Virus record (IMG/VR): IMGVR_UViG_3300045988_156427
Strand: one strand, 5' to 3'
Source of the DNA: a virus
Lineage: Duplodnaviria > Heunggongvirae > Uroviricota > Caudoviricetes
Length of the DNA: 64,000 nt
Shown here: positions 6,149-58,924 of the stretch, in pieces
Numbering within the stretch: position 1 is the first letter of the stretch
How the letters are laid out: each line of letters opens with the position of its first letter
Notes under the pieces: model-generated
The model's input: only the letters and a program-made list of their open reading frames with translations
The model's database searches: none
Told to the model about the DNA's origin: nothing
Position numbers and translations under genes: made by a program

Positions 6149-9136
6149 ATGAGCTTAAGCGATCAGGTGGTGATGGCCACCAGCATAGAAACGCTGATCG
6201 AGCTGCTAAAAAACCTGCCCGATTACGGGCGGGTTTCGTATGTGGTGACAGCGAAGGGAGACGAGGTAAAAACAGCGTTTGATATCGTCGATGCCTCAGC
6301 TCTTTTGGTATCCAATACTCTGGATGGGAAAATTAATCCAGACTATCCCCAGGAACTTCAGCCGCGCGACCGGACCCGCGCATCCAGCCTTCTTCAGGTC
6401 AACCAGATATCCAAGGATTTGCGTCCTGCCCAGCTTACCGATTCCGGTTTATCCAGCCATGGCGCGCCGATAATTGGTGAGGACAATGCCATTGAGTCAG
6501 GTAATGGACGGACCATGGGGATCATCAAAGCCTATCAGGACGGCAATGCGGATCGGTATCGTGAGTACCTGATTGAACATGCGACCGAATTCGGAATACG
6601 ACCTGAAAAGGTTGAATCAATGACGGCTCCGGTACTGGTGCGCCGCCGGTTAACGAAGGTTGACCGTGTTCAGTTTGCCAAGGACTCAAATATTTCTGAT
6701 CTCCAGGAAATGGCAGCCAGTGAAAAGGCTTTTGTTGATGCCGACAGCATAACTCCGGCGATGATGGCGCTGTTTAACCCATCAGAAAGCGGAGATCTGC
6801 TTAGCCGCAGTAATGACGCGTTTATTCGCGGGTTCATGACGCAAGTTGGTGCCACACAGGCTGCTGGCCTTGTAACGGAAGATGGGCGACCAACACGGCA
6901 ACTTGTTGACCGTATACAAAACGCGATCTTTGCCAAGGCATATAAGGATGCGCGCCTGGTAAGAATGGTTGCAGAAGAACCTGATCCGGATATGCGTAAT
7001 GTTCTGACGGCGCTTAATGCGGCAGCCAATGATTTTGTCCAGATGCAGGCTTTATCAGGAGAAGCGCACAAGCAGGCTGTGACAACTATTGTTGATGGTA
7101 TTGAGACAGCGGATAGTCTCGATAAAAAGGCGCTGGCGGCATTGAAAGATGCGGTAGACCTGGTAAGGCAATCGAAGGAGTCAGGCCAACATATTACCGA
7201 TGTTATTGCTCAGGGGGATATGTTCAGCGAAACAGCCCCGGAAGTGAAAGCTCTCGCGTTGTTCATCGTCGCGAATAACCGTAGCGCGAAGCGTATGGCC
7301 ACCGCCTTTAAGTTGATGGCTCAACGTATCAATGATGAGTTACAGCACCAGGGCCAGGCTCTGGGGGATATGTTTGGCGGCGGCGATGTGTCGTTACAGG
7401 ATATCCTTCGCCAGGTGTCTCAGGAACTGGAAAACGAAGGCATGCAAGGGATATCCGGCGGTCTTTTCGAGTCCGTTTCCGGCGGTAGTTACAACGGTGT
7501 TGCTCCGTATACCAGTTTGCTATTACATCGGGCATCCGGCATCAAAGACATTATTCATCTGATCAGGCTGCTTTCCCGCACAGATCCCCAGGATGAACAG
7601 CTTGTACAAGTGCTTGCGCATTTTGTTCGAATGCCTGTTGCCGACGTGAAAAAATGGTGCCGATTATTCGGTATCAGCAATTCGTTACTTCGCGGCTTGT
7701 TAAATCACGCATCCTCCCTTGGGCGCGATGGCTTTGACGAGATAGCGCAGGCGATAAAAAACGGAGATATGCCACCAGCTATTGACTGGTTTTCCATTCG
7801 CCCAACCAGGGTGAAAGCATTCCTTAGCGCGGCGCATTCGGCATCACCATTGGCAGAAATGGTTCAGAGGTTGTCGCTCATATTCACAGACCATACCGCG
7901 TTGGGTGATCTGACTCTGGACGAGATGAAAGAAGCCTCCATTCAGTGGGCCGATCAACAAAATGAGGTTAACTCAGACTTCTTGCCAGCATTCAGGAAGG
8001 CCGTTAGTAAAGCGGATGATGCCCGTGGAATTCTGAAGGCATTTAAGGCATTGCAAAGTCGTGTTAATAAACATGTCGGTGATATCGATGGGGTAACGGC
8101 GGAAGGCCGGGATATCCTTAAAGAGCACGGCATAACGCCAGAGTTTATTGATGAGATCAGGACTGATATGCAGCGTGAGGTCGTATCGTCCCTGCAAATC
8201 GTAGTCAGAGCGTTGGCGGATGCTAATCCGAAGAGTGCGGCCATTGTTAACCGGGTTATTGGTGATATTGAAGCATCGGAGGGCATGGGGGCGCTGAAAC
8301 TCTTCCTGTCGCGAGCGTTTAATCCTAACGGCAATATTCTCCCTGGCATTATTGGTGAGGCTAAAAAGTATGTCAGTGAAGAAGAACTTGAGCAGCTTGA
8401 CCAACTACTTAAGCGATTCTCATATAACCCGCAGACACGCTGGCAAATGAATCAGCGAAGTATGGGTTCGGTCCACGAGAAAGTGTTATCTGCCATGAAC
8501 AGTGCGATCGCAAACTCATCCGTATCTGAAGAAAAAGCTCTTGAGTGGGCCGACTCTTTTATCACGGAAGAAGTGGAAGAAGCCCGCGCTGGACAGAATG
8601 GTGGGATAGACCTGCGCAAGGAACTTGCTGATATTTATCGCCTGACCGGCGGGAAAATATCGACCTTATCAAAAGTGGTTCACCACCAGGGAAGGGCATA
8701 TGCAAATCTAAATGGTGTTGTTGCTGTCAATTTGAACGATGAAAATGCAAGTGCACTGTGGCACGAGCTGGGTCATCATCTTGAGTACAGTAACCCTGGT
8801 TTGTTAGAGAAAGCCCGGTCATTCCTGAAGGCCAATGTTGAAGGGGATAAGCCATCTTTCGTCAATATCGGTGGGCGTGGCAAGCCTGAATGGTGCTTCA
8901 GATCTCGATTGAGTAATATTTATATGGCGAAGGTATACCCGCCAGCCTCAGTAAGTAACACCGGGAAAATTCGGCAGAAATCACCGACTATTTCCAAAAC
9001 GTCAGCAACGGAAGTATTCTCTATGGCTCTTCAGTTGTATCATGACAAAGAGGCCGCTGCCGCATCACTGATGAATGGTGACGGATTGCTGGAACTGTTA
9101 TTAGGTGTGGCAAAGGAGCTAAATAATGCAGATTAA
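6149..9136 (+). CDS. ddrB: DdrB, large Dar-operon protein
   Basis: 995 aa; synteny and size. Confidence 0.6.
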   Translation: MSLSDQVVMATSIETLIELLKNLPDYGRVSYVVTAKGDEVKTAFDIVDASALLVSNTLDGKINPDYPQELQPRDRTRASSLLQVNQISKDLRPAQLTDSGLSSHGAPIIGEDNAIESGNGRTMGIIKAYQDGNADRYREYLIEHATEFGIRPEKVESMTAPVLVRRRLTKVDRVQFAKDSNISDLQEMAASEKAFVDADSITPAMMALFNPSESGDLLSRSNDAFIRGFMTQVGATQAAGLVTEDGRPTRQLVDRIQNAIFAKAYKDARLVRMVAEEPDPDMRNVLTALNAAANDFVQMQALSGEAHKQAVTTIVDGIETADSLDKKALAALKDAVDLVRQSKESGQHITDVIAQGDMFSETAPEVKALALFIVANNRSAKRMATAFKLMAQRINDELQHQGQALGDMFGGGDVSLQDILRQVSQELENEGMQGISGGLFESVSGGSYNGVAPYTSLLLHRASGIKDIIHLIRLLSRTDPQDEQLVQVLAHFVRMPVADVKKWCRLFGISNSLLRGLLNHASSLGRDGFDEIAQAIKNGDMPPAIDWFSIRPTRVKAFLSAAHSASPLAEMVQRLSLIFTDHTALGDLTLDEMKEASIQWADQQNEVNSDFLPAFRKAVSKADDARGILKAFKALQSRVNKHVGDIDGVTAEGRDILKEHGITPEFIDEIRTDMQREVVSSLQIVVRALADANPKSAAIVNRVIGDIEASEGMGALKLFLSRAFNPNGNILPGIIGEAKKYVSEEELEQLDQLLKRFSYNPQTRWQMNQRSMGSVHEKVLSAMNSAIANSSVSEEKALEWADSFITEEVEEARAGQNGGIDLRKELADIYRLTGGKISTLSKVVHHQGRAYANLNGVVAVNLNDENASALWHELGHHLEYSNPGLLEKARSFLKANVEGDKPSFVNIGGRGKPEWCFRSRLSNIYMAKVYPPASVSNTGKIRQKSPTISKTSATEVFSMALQLYHDKEAAAASLMNGDGLLELLLGVAKELNNAD

Positions 9137-9434
9137 AATCGCAGCGCCATTAGGCGGAGATGCCATTATCGAATTTGATGATAATGAAGAAGTTTCCGGG
9201 CGTTTAAGCATTATCTCCGGTGACATTACCGAGGACATGATCGCTGAAGCCATAGCTGGGGCAAATCCCAATAGCTATATGGGATTCGTTAACACCCTTG
9301 ATGCTCCCGCAAGTGATGTTCTCCGAACGCTGCATCTTTACGCTGGCTGGTTTGTTGATTGGCCAGCAGTAGATGGTGGCGATGAGGACGACGACGATGA
9401 TTTTGGTGATCATGTAGACCAGATCGTATATTGA
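9126..9434 (+). CDS. Small acidic protein ending in an Asp-rich tail, last gene of the dar operon
   Basis: 102 aa, strong AAGGAG RBS, overlaps ddrB stop. Confidence 0.55.
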   Translation: MQIKIAAPLGGDAIIEFDDNEEVSGRLSIISGDITEDMIAEAIAGANPNSYMGFVNTLDAPASDVLRTLHLYAGWFVDWPAVDGGDEDDDDDFGDHVDQIVY

Positions 9435-9437
9435 AGA

Positions 9438-9462
9438 AATCCCGCCAATCGGCGGGATTTTT
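9438..9462. terminator. Bidirectional intrinsic terminator between convergent operons
   Basis: AAATCCCGCC-AATC-GGCGGGATTT hairpin followed by a T-run, 4 nt after the stop at 9434. Confidence 0.7.
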
Positions 9463-9465
9463 ACC

Positions 9466-10560
9466 TCACGAGAAGCTTTTTTCTGATGTCAGCCAACAGT
9501 GCTCGTGCAAATCTCTTGGTGGTTTTTCGACAAATGCCTCTTCAGCCACATCCTGCCAGGGGATTTGTTTAGTCCATTCAGCTATAGCGTTATGGTTTGC
9601 CGAGAATAACGGTATTGTATAGGCCTTCAGCCAGTCTAATGTGCTGGAGTTGTGTTTTTGAGCGTGATGTTTCGCATGGTGTTTGGCGATCACGATCGTA
9701 GGCACTACCCATTTACTACCGTCAGTCATTGTGAAGTGCATATTACGGGGAACAGATGACTTTTCCATCAACTCCCGAATCCCGGGAAATTTCCCCAAGA
9801 TCAATCGGCGATATTCATCGCTATTGCGCCCACCAAACTCTTTGGCTTTGAATTCAAGATATGCTTCAGAAACGAGAGGTGAATCCTCTGTGTTTAGAGT
9901 TATCGCCGTGAAAAAACCAGCAGGATTGTTTTTACTATGGGCCAACCGGTGATGCGAATCATAAAAGTACCCTTTCTCGCGTTCCGATGGTTTCGACAGC
10001 AACAGCAGGCGCGAGTCATAATTGGTTAAATTGCCAGTTATCACTGCATGAGCGCGATCGCTGATTTCCGCCGAGTTAATAACGATGAAAAGATCGTGCG
10101 GTCCAGTAAAACCAGCCAGAGACTCTTCGTTATTCAGACAATAGGTTATATAGACGCATCCCCATGTTTCACTGATATGCACCAACCCTTTGTCAGGGTG
10201 TATTCTGAAATAATTGCCAAGAAAAGGGTGTTTTTGGGTAACTCGCTCCCAATAACGGAACATATAGTCAATTATTGTTTTTCGACTATCGTTAATCGCA
10301 GGAGAAACAACCACTGTACGGGAACACGAATACAGTATTGTTTGCAGGATGCTAATCACTGCCACAATAGAGGTTTCCCCAATACCATGTGGTGTGGTGG
10401 CAGTGACTTTGGCTCCGGTGTTCTTTATCGCGTTAATAATTTTTGCTTGATGAGGTGTTAACTCAATATCAAGCAACTCTTTTGCTGCCAGTTCCCAATT
10501 GTCTTTATACCGTTCTATCAGTGCTAACCAGGCAGATTCATTCTGTATACGATTAATCAC
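9466..10560 (-). CDS. PacB paralogue: terminase large-subunit ATPase-domain homologue with degenerate Walker motifs, no nuclease domain
   Basis: 364 aa; shares [22 protein letters not shown] and GGR blocks with PacB (29798-31282); Walker A is GIGET, Walker B is NS in place of DE. Confidence 0.6.
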   Translation of the reverse strand: MINRIQNESAWLALIERYKDNWELAAKELLDIELTPHQAKIINAIKNTGAKVTATTPHGIGETSIVAVISILQTILYSCSRTVVVSPAINDSRKTIIDYMFRYWERVTQKHPFLGNYFRIHPDKGLVHISETWGCVYITYCLNNEESLAGFTGPHDLFIVINSAEISDRAHAVITGNLTNYDSRLLLLSKPSEREKGYFYDSHHRLAHSKNNPAGFFTAITLNTEDSPLVSEAYLEFKAKEFGGRNSDEYRRLILGKFPGIRELMEKSSVPRNMHFTMTDGSKWVVPTIVIAKHHAKHHAQKHNSSTLDWLKAYTIPLFSANHNAIAEWTKQIPWQDVAEEAFVEKPPRDLHEHCWLTSEKSFS

Positions 10561-11461
10561 TTTCCACCTCTTCCGTGGTGTTTTCTTGCAGTTCTGTTAA
10601 TGCAGCACGACATAGGTTCCGGGCATTGGCTATAGCCACACTTTTGACTTCATCCGTCATCGTGCAGGTAATGTACTGATCGAGTTCTTCAGCGCGGATG
10701 ATGCTTTTGCCAATCAGAAACTGTATTTGCCATAGCAGATCGGCATCCATAATCAGAATTTCTGCCGGGCCTTCAGGGCCAGCCGGGAAGGAAACATAAG
10801 ACTGTTTGCCCAGGCCGACAACTCGACAACTTGCTTCAAGAATTGCGCGCTTGAGGTCTGACTTTATAACGGAAACAGGTTGATTTTCACCAGTGATTAC
10901 GCCGTTGACATGGAAAGGCATGTAGCTTGAAATACGCTCCACTTTCCACACGCCAGCAAGCGATCCTTCATGCAGCACAATGGGGGTAACCGCGAGTTTC
11001 ATCTCACCATATAACTGCTGGCAGATAGCTGGATTGCTGAATACATCTAAAGGCTCACATTCAAACAGCGGCGCAATCTGCATGAGGTCCATCATGGTCA
11101 TCCCTGGGGTACGAGCAGTAATGAATTTGCGCATACCAGTATCCATTGCGCTCCAGATTGCTACACCATGCTTTTTGCTCACTTCTTCAGTAAAGCCAAG
11201 GTGGCACATGATGGTTTTTTCGATAGCCAGATCGGAGATAGAAACCTTTTCGCCAGGTACACCATCATTATTGATGGTCACTTCGACACTCTGGCCATTA
11301 CGCAGGCGGTATTGAATTGTTTTAGTATTTTGTGCTGCCATAGTCTTTTCTCTGCTTAAAAACTGATGTATTGCGCCTTCAGGTGGGTCAGGAATGTTTT
11401 CCCACCAGCGAAAGCAATATCTCGGGGTGTTCTGTTCGTTAAAAACGCGTTCCATTGCCAA
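10553..11461 (-). CDS. Hypothetical protein, translationally coupled to the PacB paralogue
   Basis: 302 aa ORF; its stop overlaps the downstream GTG start (GTGATTAA); true start may be internal. Confidence 0.45.
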   Translation of the reverse strand: MAMERVFNEQNTPRYCFRWWENIPDPPEGAIHQFLSREKTMAAQNTKTIQYRLRNGQSVEVTINNDGVPGEKVSISDLAIEKTIMCHLGFTEEVSKKHGVAIWSAMDTGMRKFITARTPGMTMMDLMQIAPLFECEPLDVFSNPAICQQLYGEMKLAVTPIVLHEGSLAGVWKVERISSYMPFHVNGVITGENQPVSVIKSDLKRAILEASCRVVGLGKQSYVSFPAGPEGPAEILIMDADLLWQIQFLIGKSIIRAEELDQYITCTMTDEVKSVAIANARNLCRAALTELQENTTEEVESD

Positions 11462-11543
11462 CTTTGGCGTTTTTTAGCGAGTTCGTGCTTTTGTTGGCGT
11501 TTGGACCACCGCTTTTCTTTCAGTCGTTTTTTACTCATAAACT

Positions 11544-12032
11544 CTAAAACGGAATATCGTCTTCAAAGTCCATTGGAGGTTCGTTATTGGCGCTGCTCTG
11601 AGGTTTGCCACCACCGCTGTATTGCTGGTGGTTTTGAGGTTGGTTTGACTGCCCCCAGCCATTTGAGGACTGTGAATCGTCGCGGCGAGCGCCGATCATT
11701 TGCATGGTGCCGCCCTGGCTGACGATAATTTCCGTCGTGTAACGTTCTACACCGGCGTCATCTGTCCACTTACGGGTTTTAAGTTTCCCTTCGATGTAGA
11801 CCTGAGAACCTTTTCGTAAATACTCACTCGCAATTTCAGCAAGTTTTCCGAACAAAACGACTTTATGCCATTCTGTTTGCTCTTTCTGTTGGCCCGTTTG
11901 CTTGTCGCGCCATGATTCATTCGTTGCGATGCTGAGTCTTCCGACCGCGCCGCCATTTGGTATATACCTGATCTCCGGGTCTTGCCCCAGGGTACCAATC
12001 AGGATGACTTTGTTTACACCGCGTTGTGCCAC
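11544..12032 (-). CDS. ssb: Single-stranded DNA-binding protein
   Basis: 162 aa, OB-fold N-terminus, Gly/Gln-rich linker, acidic DDIPF tail; GTG start. Confidence 0.9.
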
Positions 12033-12051
12033 TTATCTTACCTAATAAAAT

Positions 12052-12068
12052 AAATTAATTAGAGCAAT
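12052..12068. promoter_or_regulatory. C1 repressor operator-like 17-mer (AAATTAATTAGAGCAAT)
   Basis: 16/17 match to reverse complement of ATTGCTCTAATAAATTT, in the divergent ssb/lyz promoter region. Confidence 0.6.
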
Positions 12069-12200
12069 AATATATATCTTTGAAACGTAGCTAACAAGTG
12101 ATTTGCATTATCCTGTGTCTTCTAAAGGGATCGAGTCAGTCGGTATTGGCTGTGAATGGGTGTTTGTCCTGGAGCGTAAAAATTCGCTTATGAGGTCTTT

Positions 12201-29797: not shown

Positions 29798-31282
29798 TTA
29801 TTCATTAAGCCATGCCAGAGCTTCATCAACCTGCGCTTCGTCTTCGACGCTAAGCACTTCATCTTGGGGAACATAGTTCGCCAACATAGCGAAACAATAT
29901 GTATCCCAATGGTCCGGTGAGTGCAGGTTGAGTTTTTTCTTCATATCTTCCTTTGACATCACCTTCCATTGACCTGCGGAATTTATCCCTACCGGTATCT
30001 TTGATGCTTCCTCTATAGTCGCAGCCCCCTTATCAAGCCTCATACGCCCTGATTTTACAGCTTCTGCCGCCTGAATATTCGCGAAAGCGCGCATATCGAA
30101 ATAAAGGCTTTTATCTTCACGGCTGTGCATCTTTTTACCCCAGCGGATACGCTGGACGGTAATGCCATAGCGTTCGTACATTAGATCAGCCGTCGATTTC
30201 CCCAAGCCATCGCCATCAATAGCTATGGTTATGTTCGGGAACCGTTCTGGGTTACATTCTGCGAAAATCTTGGCGGCTAACTGCGTTTCTGTAACGTCTG
30301 TGTATTCCAGCATACGATAGTTGATTACACGGCGTTTATTTCGCTGGCCGGACACCATCATGATATTAATAACGGACTTATCTCGTCCTGTGCCACCAGC
30401 AACGTCAACACATGCAACCCAGCCCCATCCTTTGGCAATCTTGACCTTTCGCCGCGTCGCCCGCTCAACCTCATCACGACCAAGAAGAAAGCCATCTTGA
30501 GATTTGGGAAATTCACCACGTACTTTGATCATGTACATGGGGTTATCACGACCGCCATACTCCGCAAGTTTTGCTCGTATAAATTTTGCATCTACAAGCG
30601 GAGATTCTTCACTATTCAGTATTATCGCAGTAAACAATCCATCAGGATTTCCCGGGCGAATAGCTAGTCTGTGGTGTGAATCGTAGAAATAGCCTGAAGG
30701 TCGCGTAGGCTGGGAAAGAAGCAGAATACGGTTATCCTTACCGGTCAGCGCACCTGTTATCACACTGAATGCTTTATCACTTACACCCGACGCTTCGTCG
30801 ATGATATACAAGAGATGATCGGCGTGTTCACCAGCCAACGCCTCCTCATTTCCGGGGCGACAGGACTTTATCAATATTGTCCAAACACCCTTGCCAGTCA
30901 CCTCAAAAAAAGACGTTTCTGTAAGAATGAAATACTTCGACAACCACGGGAATCTGCTAACAGCAGTAGCCCAATTGCTCTTTATGTATTTGAAAATACC
31001 ATCAAGGACTTGCTGTCTTTTGTTAGCGACCAGAATGACGCGAGCGCCGGGGAAAAACATGATGAAGAGTATTGCAATGATACTCGTCATATCCGATTTA
31101 CCAGTACCATGGCCGGAGGTCACACTTGTCCAACTGCCGTCCTGCTGCGTGGACTCAATGATCTCATCCTGCTGCCAGGTTGGTGTCTTCCCAAACAACA
31201 CATCAGCGGCCGCAATCCAGTCATAACGATATAGCGCCACCAGCTCGCGCCAACGTGGGTCCGTTACGCAACTTCTGGCCAT
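29798..31282 (-). CDS. pacB: Terminase large subunit PacB
   Basis: 494 aa; Walker A SGHGTGKS, Walker [14 protein letters not shown]; TAATG overlap with pacA. Confidence 0.85.
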
Positions 31283-58907: not shown

Positions 58908-58924
58908 AAATTTATTAGAGCAAT
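58908..58924. promoter_or_regulatory. C1 operator, perfect 17-mer (AAATTTATTAGAGCAAT), oriented toward the tRNA-tci-ban operon
   Basis: Exact reverse complement of the consensus; overlaps the dmt stop codon. Confidence 0.75.

Follow-up and report, generated by a model that had tools for sequence, protein, structure and literature searches.

The 64,000-nucleotide stretch of DNA analysed here (hereafter the window, at its full length; IMG/VR virus record IMGVR_UViG_3300045988_156427) is a P1-like phage-plasmid (Punavirus), and next to its isaA gene it carries a second gene of terminase descent, whose product is a true paralogue of the large terminase PacB. Sequence and structure comparisons depict this product as a PacB ATPase half that has lost its catalytic residues and is fused to a foreign phage early-gene domain. 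We favour, at slightly less than even confidence, the reading that this pseudo-terminase, paired with isaA, would act as a non-enzymatic mimic that binds a partner of PacB and thereby modulates packaging. The 3-kb stretch at 9100–12100 shares 99.8% identity with Escherichia phage vB_EcoM-813R1 and 96.6% with two records that bear the name P1. On the minus strand the order is ssb, isaA and the PacB paralogue, which lies tail to tail with hxr (9126–9434, plus strand), followed by ddrB. A first-pass annotation, made from the sequence, had set the locus between ssb and the dar side (hxr/ddrB) and placed IS1 at this site in P1, and the P1 record agrees on both. The paralogue, its parts and the reference terminase are located as follows.

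9466..10560, minus strand: PacB paralogue (pseudo-terminase) gene, 364 amino acids (aa), GTG start, TGA stop; BLASTP to PacB, E 5e-52.
9775..10560, minus strand: terminase-ATPase-fold domain, residues 1–262, predicted to be catalytically degenerate (alignment, AlphaFold2 (AF2) model and Foldseek).
10372..10395, minus strand: degenerate Walker A equivalent TPHGIGET, residues 56–63, with Lys replaced by Glu62 (alignment).
10069..10092, minus strand: degenerate Walker B equivalent LFIVINSA, residues 157–164, with Asp-Glu replaced by Ile161-Asn162 (alignment).
9469..9753, minus strand: C-terminal domain of ∼95 aa, residues 270–364, homologous to a stand-alone ∼100-aa phage early-region protein (phrog_17928 C-terminal region).
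29798..31282, minus strand: pacB, the active large terminase, a reference outside the cassette (BLASTP, tree).

The paralogue aligns with the PacB of the window over residues 11–272 at 35% identity and 57% positives (269-aa alignment), and this alignment holds all of the shared blocks, GGR included, on which the first-pass annotation had based the similarity of the 364-aa product to the PacB ATPase domain. The two proteins have in common the N-terminal helices DPRW..L..Y+..W..AA and the block GxFYDSHH / NP.G..TAI.L..EDSP. An AF2 model built on 87 sequences reached a mean predicted local distance difference test (pLDDT) score of 87.5, with values >90 through the ATPase core and of 70–80 in the last third, and its first Foldseek matches in the PDB were the ATPase domains of large terminases (Sf6 gp2, P74-26, HK97, T4 gp17 and D6E TerL). 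The similarity is therefore real and a terminase fold is modelled. The nuclease half is missing, as had been claimed, the paralogue ending ∼130 residues short of PacB. The motif calls held in part: Walker A SGHGTGKS is indeed replaced by TPHGIGET without a Lys, while the Walker B replacement, read as ‘NS’, was off by one residue, PacB YIIDEASG being aligned opposite FIVINSAE, with Ile161-Asn162 at the Asp-Glu positions.

The losses are common to the whole paralogue family, which comprises four lineages, all in P1-like elements, all with degenerate motifs and with intact open reading frames (ORFs) down to 37% identity. When these four lineages were compared with 84 terminases, Lys62, conserved in 100% of the latter, was found replaced by Glu, Arg, Gln or Thr, and the Walker B Asp161, ∼100% conserved in terminases, by Ile, Val, Thr or Leu. 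Gln91 and His152, likewise ∼100% conserved in terminases including PacB, are replaced in all four lineages; the catalytic Glu162 reads Asn, Asp, Glu and Asn across them, i.e. it is kept in one; and all conserved terminase nuclease columns are gaps, the protein of the window stopping at residue 364. With the Walker A Lys, the Walker B Asp, two more invariant residues and the nuclease lost, terminase-like ATP hydrolysis and DNA cutting should both be gone.

That the paralogue is still a nucleoside triphosphatase, with an unconventional active site, is very improbable. Such an enzyme might have the features that persist here, namely the Q-motif Gln38, the P-loop glycines, a Lys-Thr one residue downstream in two lineages (GIGQKT and GVGTKT) and, in one lineage, the catalytic Glu; but in the lineage of the window Glu stands in for the Lys and Ile-Asn for the Asp-Glu, none of the four lineages retains the Walker B Asp, and the occurrence of different residues in each lineage is the pattern of relaxed, not of altered, constraint. 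Set against P1 PacB and functional large terminases (TerL) in general, the paralogue has an ancestor in common with the PacBs of P1-like phages and the ASCE-type ATPase fold, but it lacks the Walker A Lys, the Walker B Asp-Glu, Gln91, His152 and the RNase H-like nuclease; its C-terminus is foreign, it lies in a presumed early operon with no small-terminase neighbour, and it is accessory rather than essential.

In a neighbour-joining tree of the ATPase region the four paralogue lineages formed one clade (bootstrap 92) on long branches, with the lineage L079 basal, and this clade was sister to the PacBs of P1-like phages (bootstrap 100 for the joint clade). One paralogue clade sister to the PacBs points to a single duplication of the ATPase domain of an ancestral PacB, the paralogue having been born once. 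Its ratio of nonsynonymous to synonymous substitution rates (dN/dS) is 0.29 (dS 0.89) for the comparison of the two D6-like lineages, and P1-type sequences compared among themselves give 0.23. Whereas conservation among PacB orthologues peaks at the Walker A and B segments (mean pairwise identity 0.83 and 0.84), these segments are among the least conserved of the paralogues (0.38 and 0.39), whose most conserved parts are residues 197–262, the C-terminal domain and the N-terminal helices 11–33. As judged from these substitution patterns, the paralogue is a maintained protein under purifying selection and no relic; being an enzyme homologue with its catalytic residues lost, it would classify as a pseudoenzyme. 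A decaying duplicate without function, a reading that the lost catalytic motifs and the fact that P1 does without the gene might invite, is hardly credible and is largely refuted by the selection data: four lineages, as far apart as 37% identity, have unbroken ORFs, with dN/dS of 0.29 at dS 0.89, ∼100 Escherichia coli genomes carry the paralogue at >=90% DNA identity, conservation extends to the gene overlap and the C-terminal domain, and no overlapping opposite-strand feature was seen.

The C-terminal part of the paralogue has a history of its own. In PHROGs the whole protein matches phrog_5902 end to end (4.7e-186), and residues 272–353 match the end of phrog_17928. By tblastn and two collection scans, from which 88 loci were analysed, this ∼95-aa unit was found to be usually a separate protein of ∼100 aa, on its own at 80 or more loci, and a metagenome scan with the stand-alone sequences yielded 271 relatives. 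Since the unit is widespread as a separate protein, the paralogue gene is, on these comparisons, a fusion of the PacB ATPase half with a foreign phage early-gene domain. Alignment with the stand-alone proteins (phrog_17928 C-terminal region; gene_35 of Cronobacter phage JK004) covers the final ∼95 paralogue residues, and positions common to both are M.D.S.W..P..VIA...A...A, T.PLF and two Trp. Unlike the stand-alone proteins, the domain of the paralogue follows a terminase ATPase fold; in the P1 and D6 lineages HHA.HHA.KH has taken the place of R-A..YA.EF, and the NNMNW motif is lost.

A shrunken remnant of the nuclease was considered for this tail and rejected: MAFFT did set a few PacB residues opposite it, but hhalign of the C-terminal domain against the PacB nuclease half found no similarity, and the domain is separate in many phages. 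The stand-alone genes neighbour those of NinG, NinB, DUF551, Ead/Ea22, methylases, YqaJ, RecT, replication O and P, DnaB and dUTPase, and a terminase family occurred only once among 150 neighbour proteins from the 88 loci. A Rosetta-stone link of the tail domain to terminases had been raised by two loci, L183 and L180, in the latter of which a stand-alone gene lies upstream of terS-terL. As the neighbours are mostly nin-type, replication and recombination genes, with terminases in just these two contexts, the specific link was dropped. At L183 (L183:3983-6884; IMGVR_UViG_3300003177_000007) the stand-alone gene precedes an 854-aa terminase and overlaps its start by 8 nt; this terminase has an extra N-terminal P-loop domain (GARDAGKTT, LIVVDDATG; residues 10–211 match phrog_2) ahead of a complete GpA-type large terminase (residues 223–780, phrog_675). 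The domain was also seen at the end of the 511-aa ORF36 of Xanthomonas phage CP2 (L008:1765-3300), which is largely Ala/Glu/Arg/Gln-rich, probably coiled-coil, with a weak N-terminal DUF1351 match.

In three P1-like phages (JK004, L175 and L176) the stand-alone tail gene follows ban, the gene of a DnaB-like helicase. The fused paralogue of the L079 lineage occupies the same post-ban place, and its tail closely resembles these three stand-alone genes in alignment, making the ban-adjacent locus a plausible birthplace of the fusion. These contexts also bear on another explanation, namely that the paralogue is an early replication, recombination or host take-over factor with no connection to packaging, in which the dead ATPase fold serves as a scaffold or DNA-binding module for the C-terminal domain. 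The fact that all placements of the paralogue fall in early or accessory clusters (after ssb, ban or dut), and the company of the stand-alone domain among NinB, NinG, RecT, YqaJ, O/P, DnaB, dUTPase, methylase and DUF551 genes, would suit this role; it leaves unexplained why a PacB ATPase domain with PacB-specific N-terminal helices was recruited and kept, no domain of known function was found, and we regard it as rather unlikely.

The partner gene and its junction with the paralogue are located as follows.

10553..11341, minus strand: isaA, 262 aa from the conserved ATG, the probable start (mechanical ORF to a TTG at 11461); 95% DNA identity to P1 isaA, phrog_2326.
10553..10570, minus strand: isaA/paralogue junction, with a GAGGTG Shine-Dalgarno-like site at 10564–10570 and the GTGATTAA start/stop overlap at 10553–10560.

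The first-pass annotation had reported a 302-aa ORF (10553–11461, TTG start) without recognisable motifs upstream of the paralogue; the ORF exists, but it has a name, being P1 isaA. The isaA-ssb segment of the window has 95% DNA identity to P1, the product matches phrog_2326 at 4.9e-149, and the gene lies downstream of ssb as in P1 (P1_gp017). The conserved start is the ATG at 11341, which matches two related phage annotations and the N-termini of all distant homologues, so that isaA probably starts there and encodes 262 aa. Distant homologues conserve neither the TTG-initiated extension of the window (to 11461) nor that of the P1 record (320 aa), suggesting that the annotated N-terminus of P1 IsaA is probably too long. 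From ssb to the conserved isaA start this leaves a spacer of ∼200 nt (11342–11543), which holds an overlapping 60-aa ORF (11356–11538). IsaA had no sequence matches in Pfam, NCBIfam, PADLOC or the PDB. A profile search of 1.84 billion proteins returned 41 cluster representatives, all single-domain; its AF2 model is poor (pLDDT 60.8), and by fold it weakly resembled only ABA-sandwich-like phage proteins, themselves uncharacterised.

The start/stop overlap of the paralogue with the upstream ORF, also in the first-pass annotation, is present as GTGATTAA with GAGGTG ahead, and in the D6-like lineages the corresponding overlaps are 11 and 14 nt. An IsaA homologue (∼47% identity) lies directly upstream and overlaps the paralogue by 8–14 nt in 33 of 35 paralogue loci, many of which are near-identical and no independent samples. 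Two slots were recognised, i.e. ssb-isaA-paralogue convergent with hxr (slot 1, P1 type), and cre ... dut, a Tad2-like DUF2829 gene, isaA' and the paralogue convergent with doc/phd (slot 2, D6-like). The similar divergence of IsaA (47%) and the paralogue (∼50%) indicates that the pair moved and evolved together, and by gene order and identity isaA and the paralogue appear as a mobile two-gene module across two slots. Two lineage sequences, L079 and L068, are without IsaA upstream of the paralogue; isaA without the paralogue occurs in P1 (with IS1 and the unrelated isaB), SJ46, Ro157c2YLVW and a distant P1-like contig. The region has been published as variable region RD-2 of P1-like plasmids (PMC6906374, PMC9603915). 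Compared with the isaA-IS1-isaB arrangement of P1 in this region, the window has isaA in the same isaA-hxr slot but the paralogue where P1 has IS1 and isaB; both isaA and isaB are non-essential in P1 by CRISPR interference (CRISPRi; PMC10695390).

A DUF2829 protein with a Tad2-like (Thoeris anti-defence 2) domain is encoded directly upstream of the IsaA homologue at L004:3557-4219, L005:3515-4165 and L186:2374-3051 (PF11195, E 2e-22 for the L004 copy), i.e. in D6-like elements and in the ssb slot of phage Ro157c2YLVW. This Tad2-like gene upstream of isaA suggests that IsaA may belong to an anti-defence neighbourhood.

The distribution of the paralogue is that of an accessory gene of P1-like elements. 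Among 5426 complete E. coli genomes, pacB is present in 575, isaA in 335 and the paralogue, counted at >=90% DNA identity, in 100, and hence it is no universal backbone gene of P1, in line with the first-pass annotation. A database search with the paralogue retrieved a 97% cluster of 851 member sequences and relatives at 53% identity; the plasmid collection contained 120 records at >=80% identity and ∼40 more full-length matches at ∼50%; and among the matches listed in the IMG/VR scan was the further lineage L079, at 37% identity. A scan of the contigs of 185,579 species representatives had one full-length paralogue among the matches listed, and from this single match the family appears confined to P1-like elements of Enterobacterales.

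Several copies have peculiarities of their own. In vB_EcoM-813R1 (ON470617.2; L003:1870-2160), of all phage records the nearest to the window, the paralogue matches in two pieces that lie in different frames near residue 335, and it is annotated 24 nt shorter; the break is a frameshift or a sequencing error, and the copy in the window is intact. In L068:97-1446 and protein P0002 the frame of a D6-like paralogue variant extends 5′ of its usual Met without a stop (449 and 438 aa), adding a charged, coiled-coil-like N-terminal extension, and the 369 nt of sequence upstream in L068 hold no IsaA homologue. A 187-kb IncF conjugative plasmid (NZ_CP116089.1; L006) carries a truncated isaA (residues 78–262), the paralogue, hxr, ddrB and darA beside IS26 and qnrS1 and is without a pacB match, P1-like cargo having moved into a conjugative resistance plasmid.

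The flanks of the cassette hold the following elements relevant to its expression.

11544..12032, minus strand: ssb, first gene of the presumed ssb-isaA-paralogue operon (ORF list, P1 record).
12052..12097, minus strand: C1 operator (12052–12068, one mismatch) beside a sigma-70-like promoter (12069–12097), upstream of ssb.
9437..9460, no strand assigned: G+C-rich hairpin between the convergent stops of the paralogue and hxr, folding −20.7 kcal/mol, z −4.9.

The C1 operator, one mismatch from the consensus, and the promoter-like site upstream of ssb are Ossb/Op21 and P1ssb/P2ssb in the P1 record. On the same strand, no further promoter-like site was found from ssb down to the paralogue, and the hairpin at 9437–9460 is a probable bidirectional terminator. 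An operator with promoter, no internal promoter-like site and a 3′ hairpin together suggest that the cassette is likely transcribed with ssb once C1 repression is lifted, i.e. isaA and the paralogue are most likely co-transcribed with ssb and C1-controlled. The paralogue of L079, beside ban, likewise adjoins an early replication gene. The convergent orientation to hxr-ddrB, behind the C1-controlled ssb promoter, argues against membership of the dar operon, and no result favours the packaged accessory protein that the first-pass annotation had offered as an alternative to a regulator of packaging or an agent interfering with it. Across the window there are 16 matches to the C1 operator consensus ATTGCTCTAATAAATTT at <=3 mismatches versus 0.37 expected, with a perfect site at 58908–58924, indicating that the window spans much of the C1 regulon.

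Terminase interference is a known strategy of mobile elements: the proteins Ppi of Staphylococcus aureus pathogenicity islands (SaPIs) and Rpp of phage-inducible chromosomal islands (PICIs) bind small terminases. Together with the accessory nature of the gene in a variable region, this would accommodate exclusion encoded by the prophage, with the mimic poisoning the terminase of superinfecting relatives during the plasmid prophage state. Yet a gene that lies under a C1 operator with ssb and has no internal promoter-like site should be silent in the lysogen. PADLOC-DB v2, searched at E up to 1, gave no match for the paralogue, IsaA or P1 IsaB (the library holds defence genes and no anti-defence genes), and exclusion is accordingly quite improbable.

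The reading we favour, the binding-only mimic of a PacB partner, would proceed as follows. Upon derepression of the prophage the paralogue would be transcribed with ssb from the C1-repressed early promoter and would act as a stoichiometric binding protein, in which the clade-specific N-terminal helices of PacB and the lid region are kept and catalytic constraint has collapsed. It might then engage a PacB partner (PacA, PacB itself or pac DNA), with IsaA and the C-terminal domain supplying the remaining contacts, and packaging would be modulated or interfered with, either in its own timing or in that of a co-resident rival P1-like element. This mimic is favoured since conservation is confined to non-catalytic surfaces and the N-terminal helices set the clade of PacB and the paralogue apart. 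Its possible logic, a non-enzymatic protein binding a terminase subunit so as to alter packaging, would be that of SaPI Ppi and PICI Rpp; unlike the paralogue, those proteins are no terminase homologues and are encoded by satellites, not by a phage.

A number of observations weigh against this mimic. The block GxFYDSHH is conserved across the wider terminase family and may therefore reflect stability of the fold and no retained interface, and an equal distance (∼35–38%) from all present-day PacB types speaks against tuning to one rival. The neighbours of the paralogue are replication and accessory genes (ssb, ban, dut and the Tad2-like gene), with no packaging module among them. As isaA often occurs without the paralogue (335 versus 100 E. 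coli genomes) and one lineage is without IsaA, joint action of the two is not required. A shadow pacA-pacB pair, in which IsaA would be a paralogue of the small terminase PacA, was ruled out at the sequence level, BLASTP and hhalign finding nothing. In the two lineages with the Lys one position late, moreover, residual nucleotide binding may persist.

The partner could also be a sensor of the host. As an anti-defence decoy, an early, inert terminase look-alike would block host terminase sensors (Avs1-3-type STAND NTPases or similar) before PacB appears. Its predicted terminase fold without activity, the early expression suggested by the ssb operator and promoter, and its standing as an accessory gene in a variable region agree with such a role, as do the Tad2-like DUF2829 gene directly upstream of isaA in D6-like elements and Ro157c2YLVW and the convergent hxr-ddrB, which the P1 record and the CRISPRi paper (PMC10695390) group with the dar anti-restriction genes. 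All of this is purely circumstantial, and the paralogue had no PADLOC match, though that library covers defence only. Of the 268 anti-defence proteins in a recent compilation (bioRxiv 10.1101/2025.06.06.658234), the only two named against Avs are a ligase and a DprA-like protein, and a terminase mimic is not among them, so that a decoy would be a new mechanism. Binding by a sensor could, besides, trigger it instead of blocking it. PDB 8dgc, a weak Foldseek match of the paralogue model, is an Avs3-terminase structure, in which contacts of the sensor reportedly fall on the active site and bound nucleotide of the ATPase and on the nuclease site; the paralogue is missing these very features, which makes sensor binding doubtful, and we consider the decoy unlikely. 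The combined proposal, that the dead packaging ATPase and IsaA are made before the real terminase and bind either terminase partners or host terminase sensors as a mimic, is tentative and would seem on the doubtful side.

In databases the paralogue family goes by ‘hypothetical protein’ or phrog_5902, whose function is unassigned there, and the label ‘terminase large subunit’ was found on it in MH422554, MH445380 and one metagenomic Caudoviricetes protein. Full-text literature searches, with most subscription journals outside their scope, turned up no terminase paralogue at the isaA locus and no description of a terminase-derived pseudoenzyme. Large terminases are regarded as essential enzymes present in single copy and serve widely as phage markers, and mis-annotated entries of this family can distort terminase-based phylogenies and predictions of packaging strategy. 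The family suggests that a terminase ATPase domain can, after duplication, inactivation and fusion to another domain, persist in a non-enzymatic role, and isaA, long unexplained, gains a conserved partner. E. coli commonly harbours P1-like phage-plasmids, which carry resistance genes, and one of the main regions of variation among them is the site of the cassette; its position by anti-defence genes leads to testable hypotheses on packaging control or immune evasion. If the paralogue does act as a mimic that binds terminase partners or host sensors, it would be the first terminase-derived pseudoenzyme in phage-phage or phage-host conflict, and it could provide control over when, or whose, DNA is packaged in cells with several P1-like elements.

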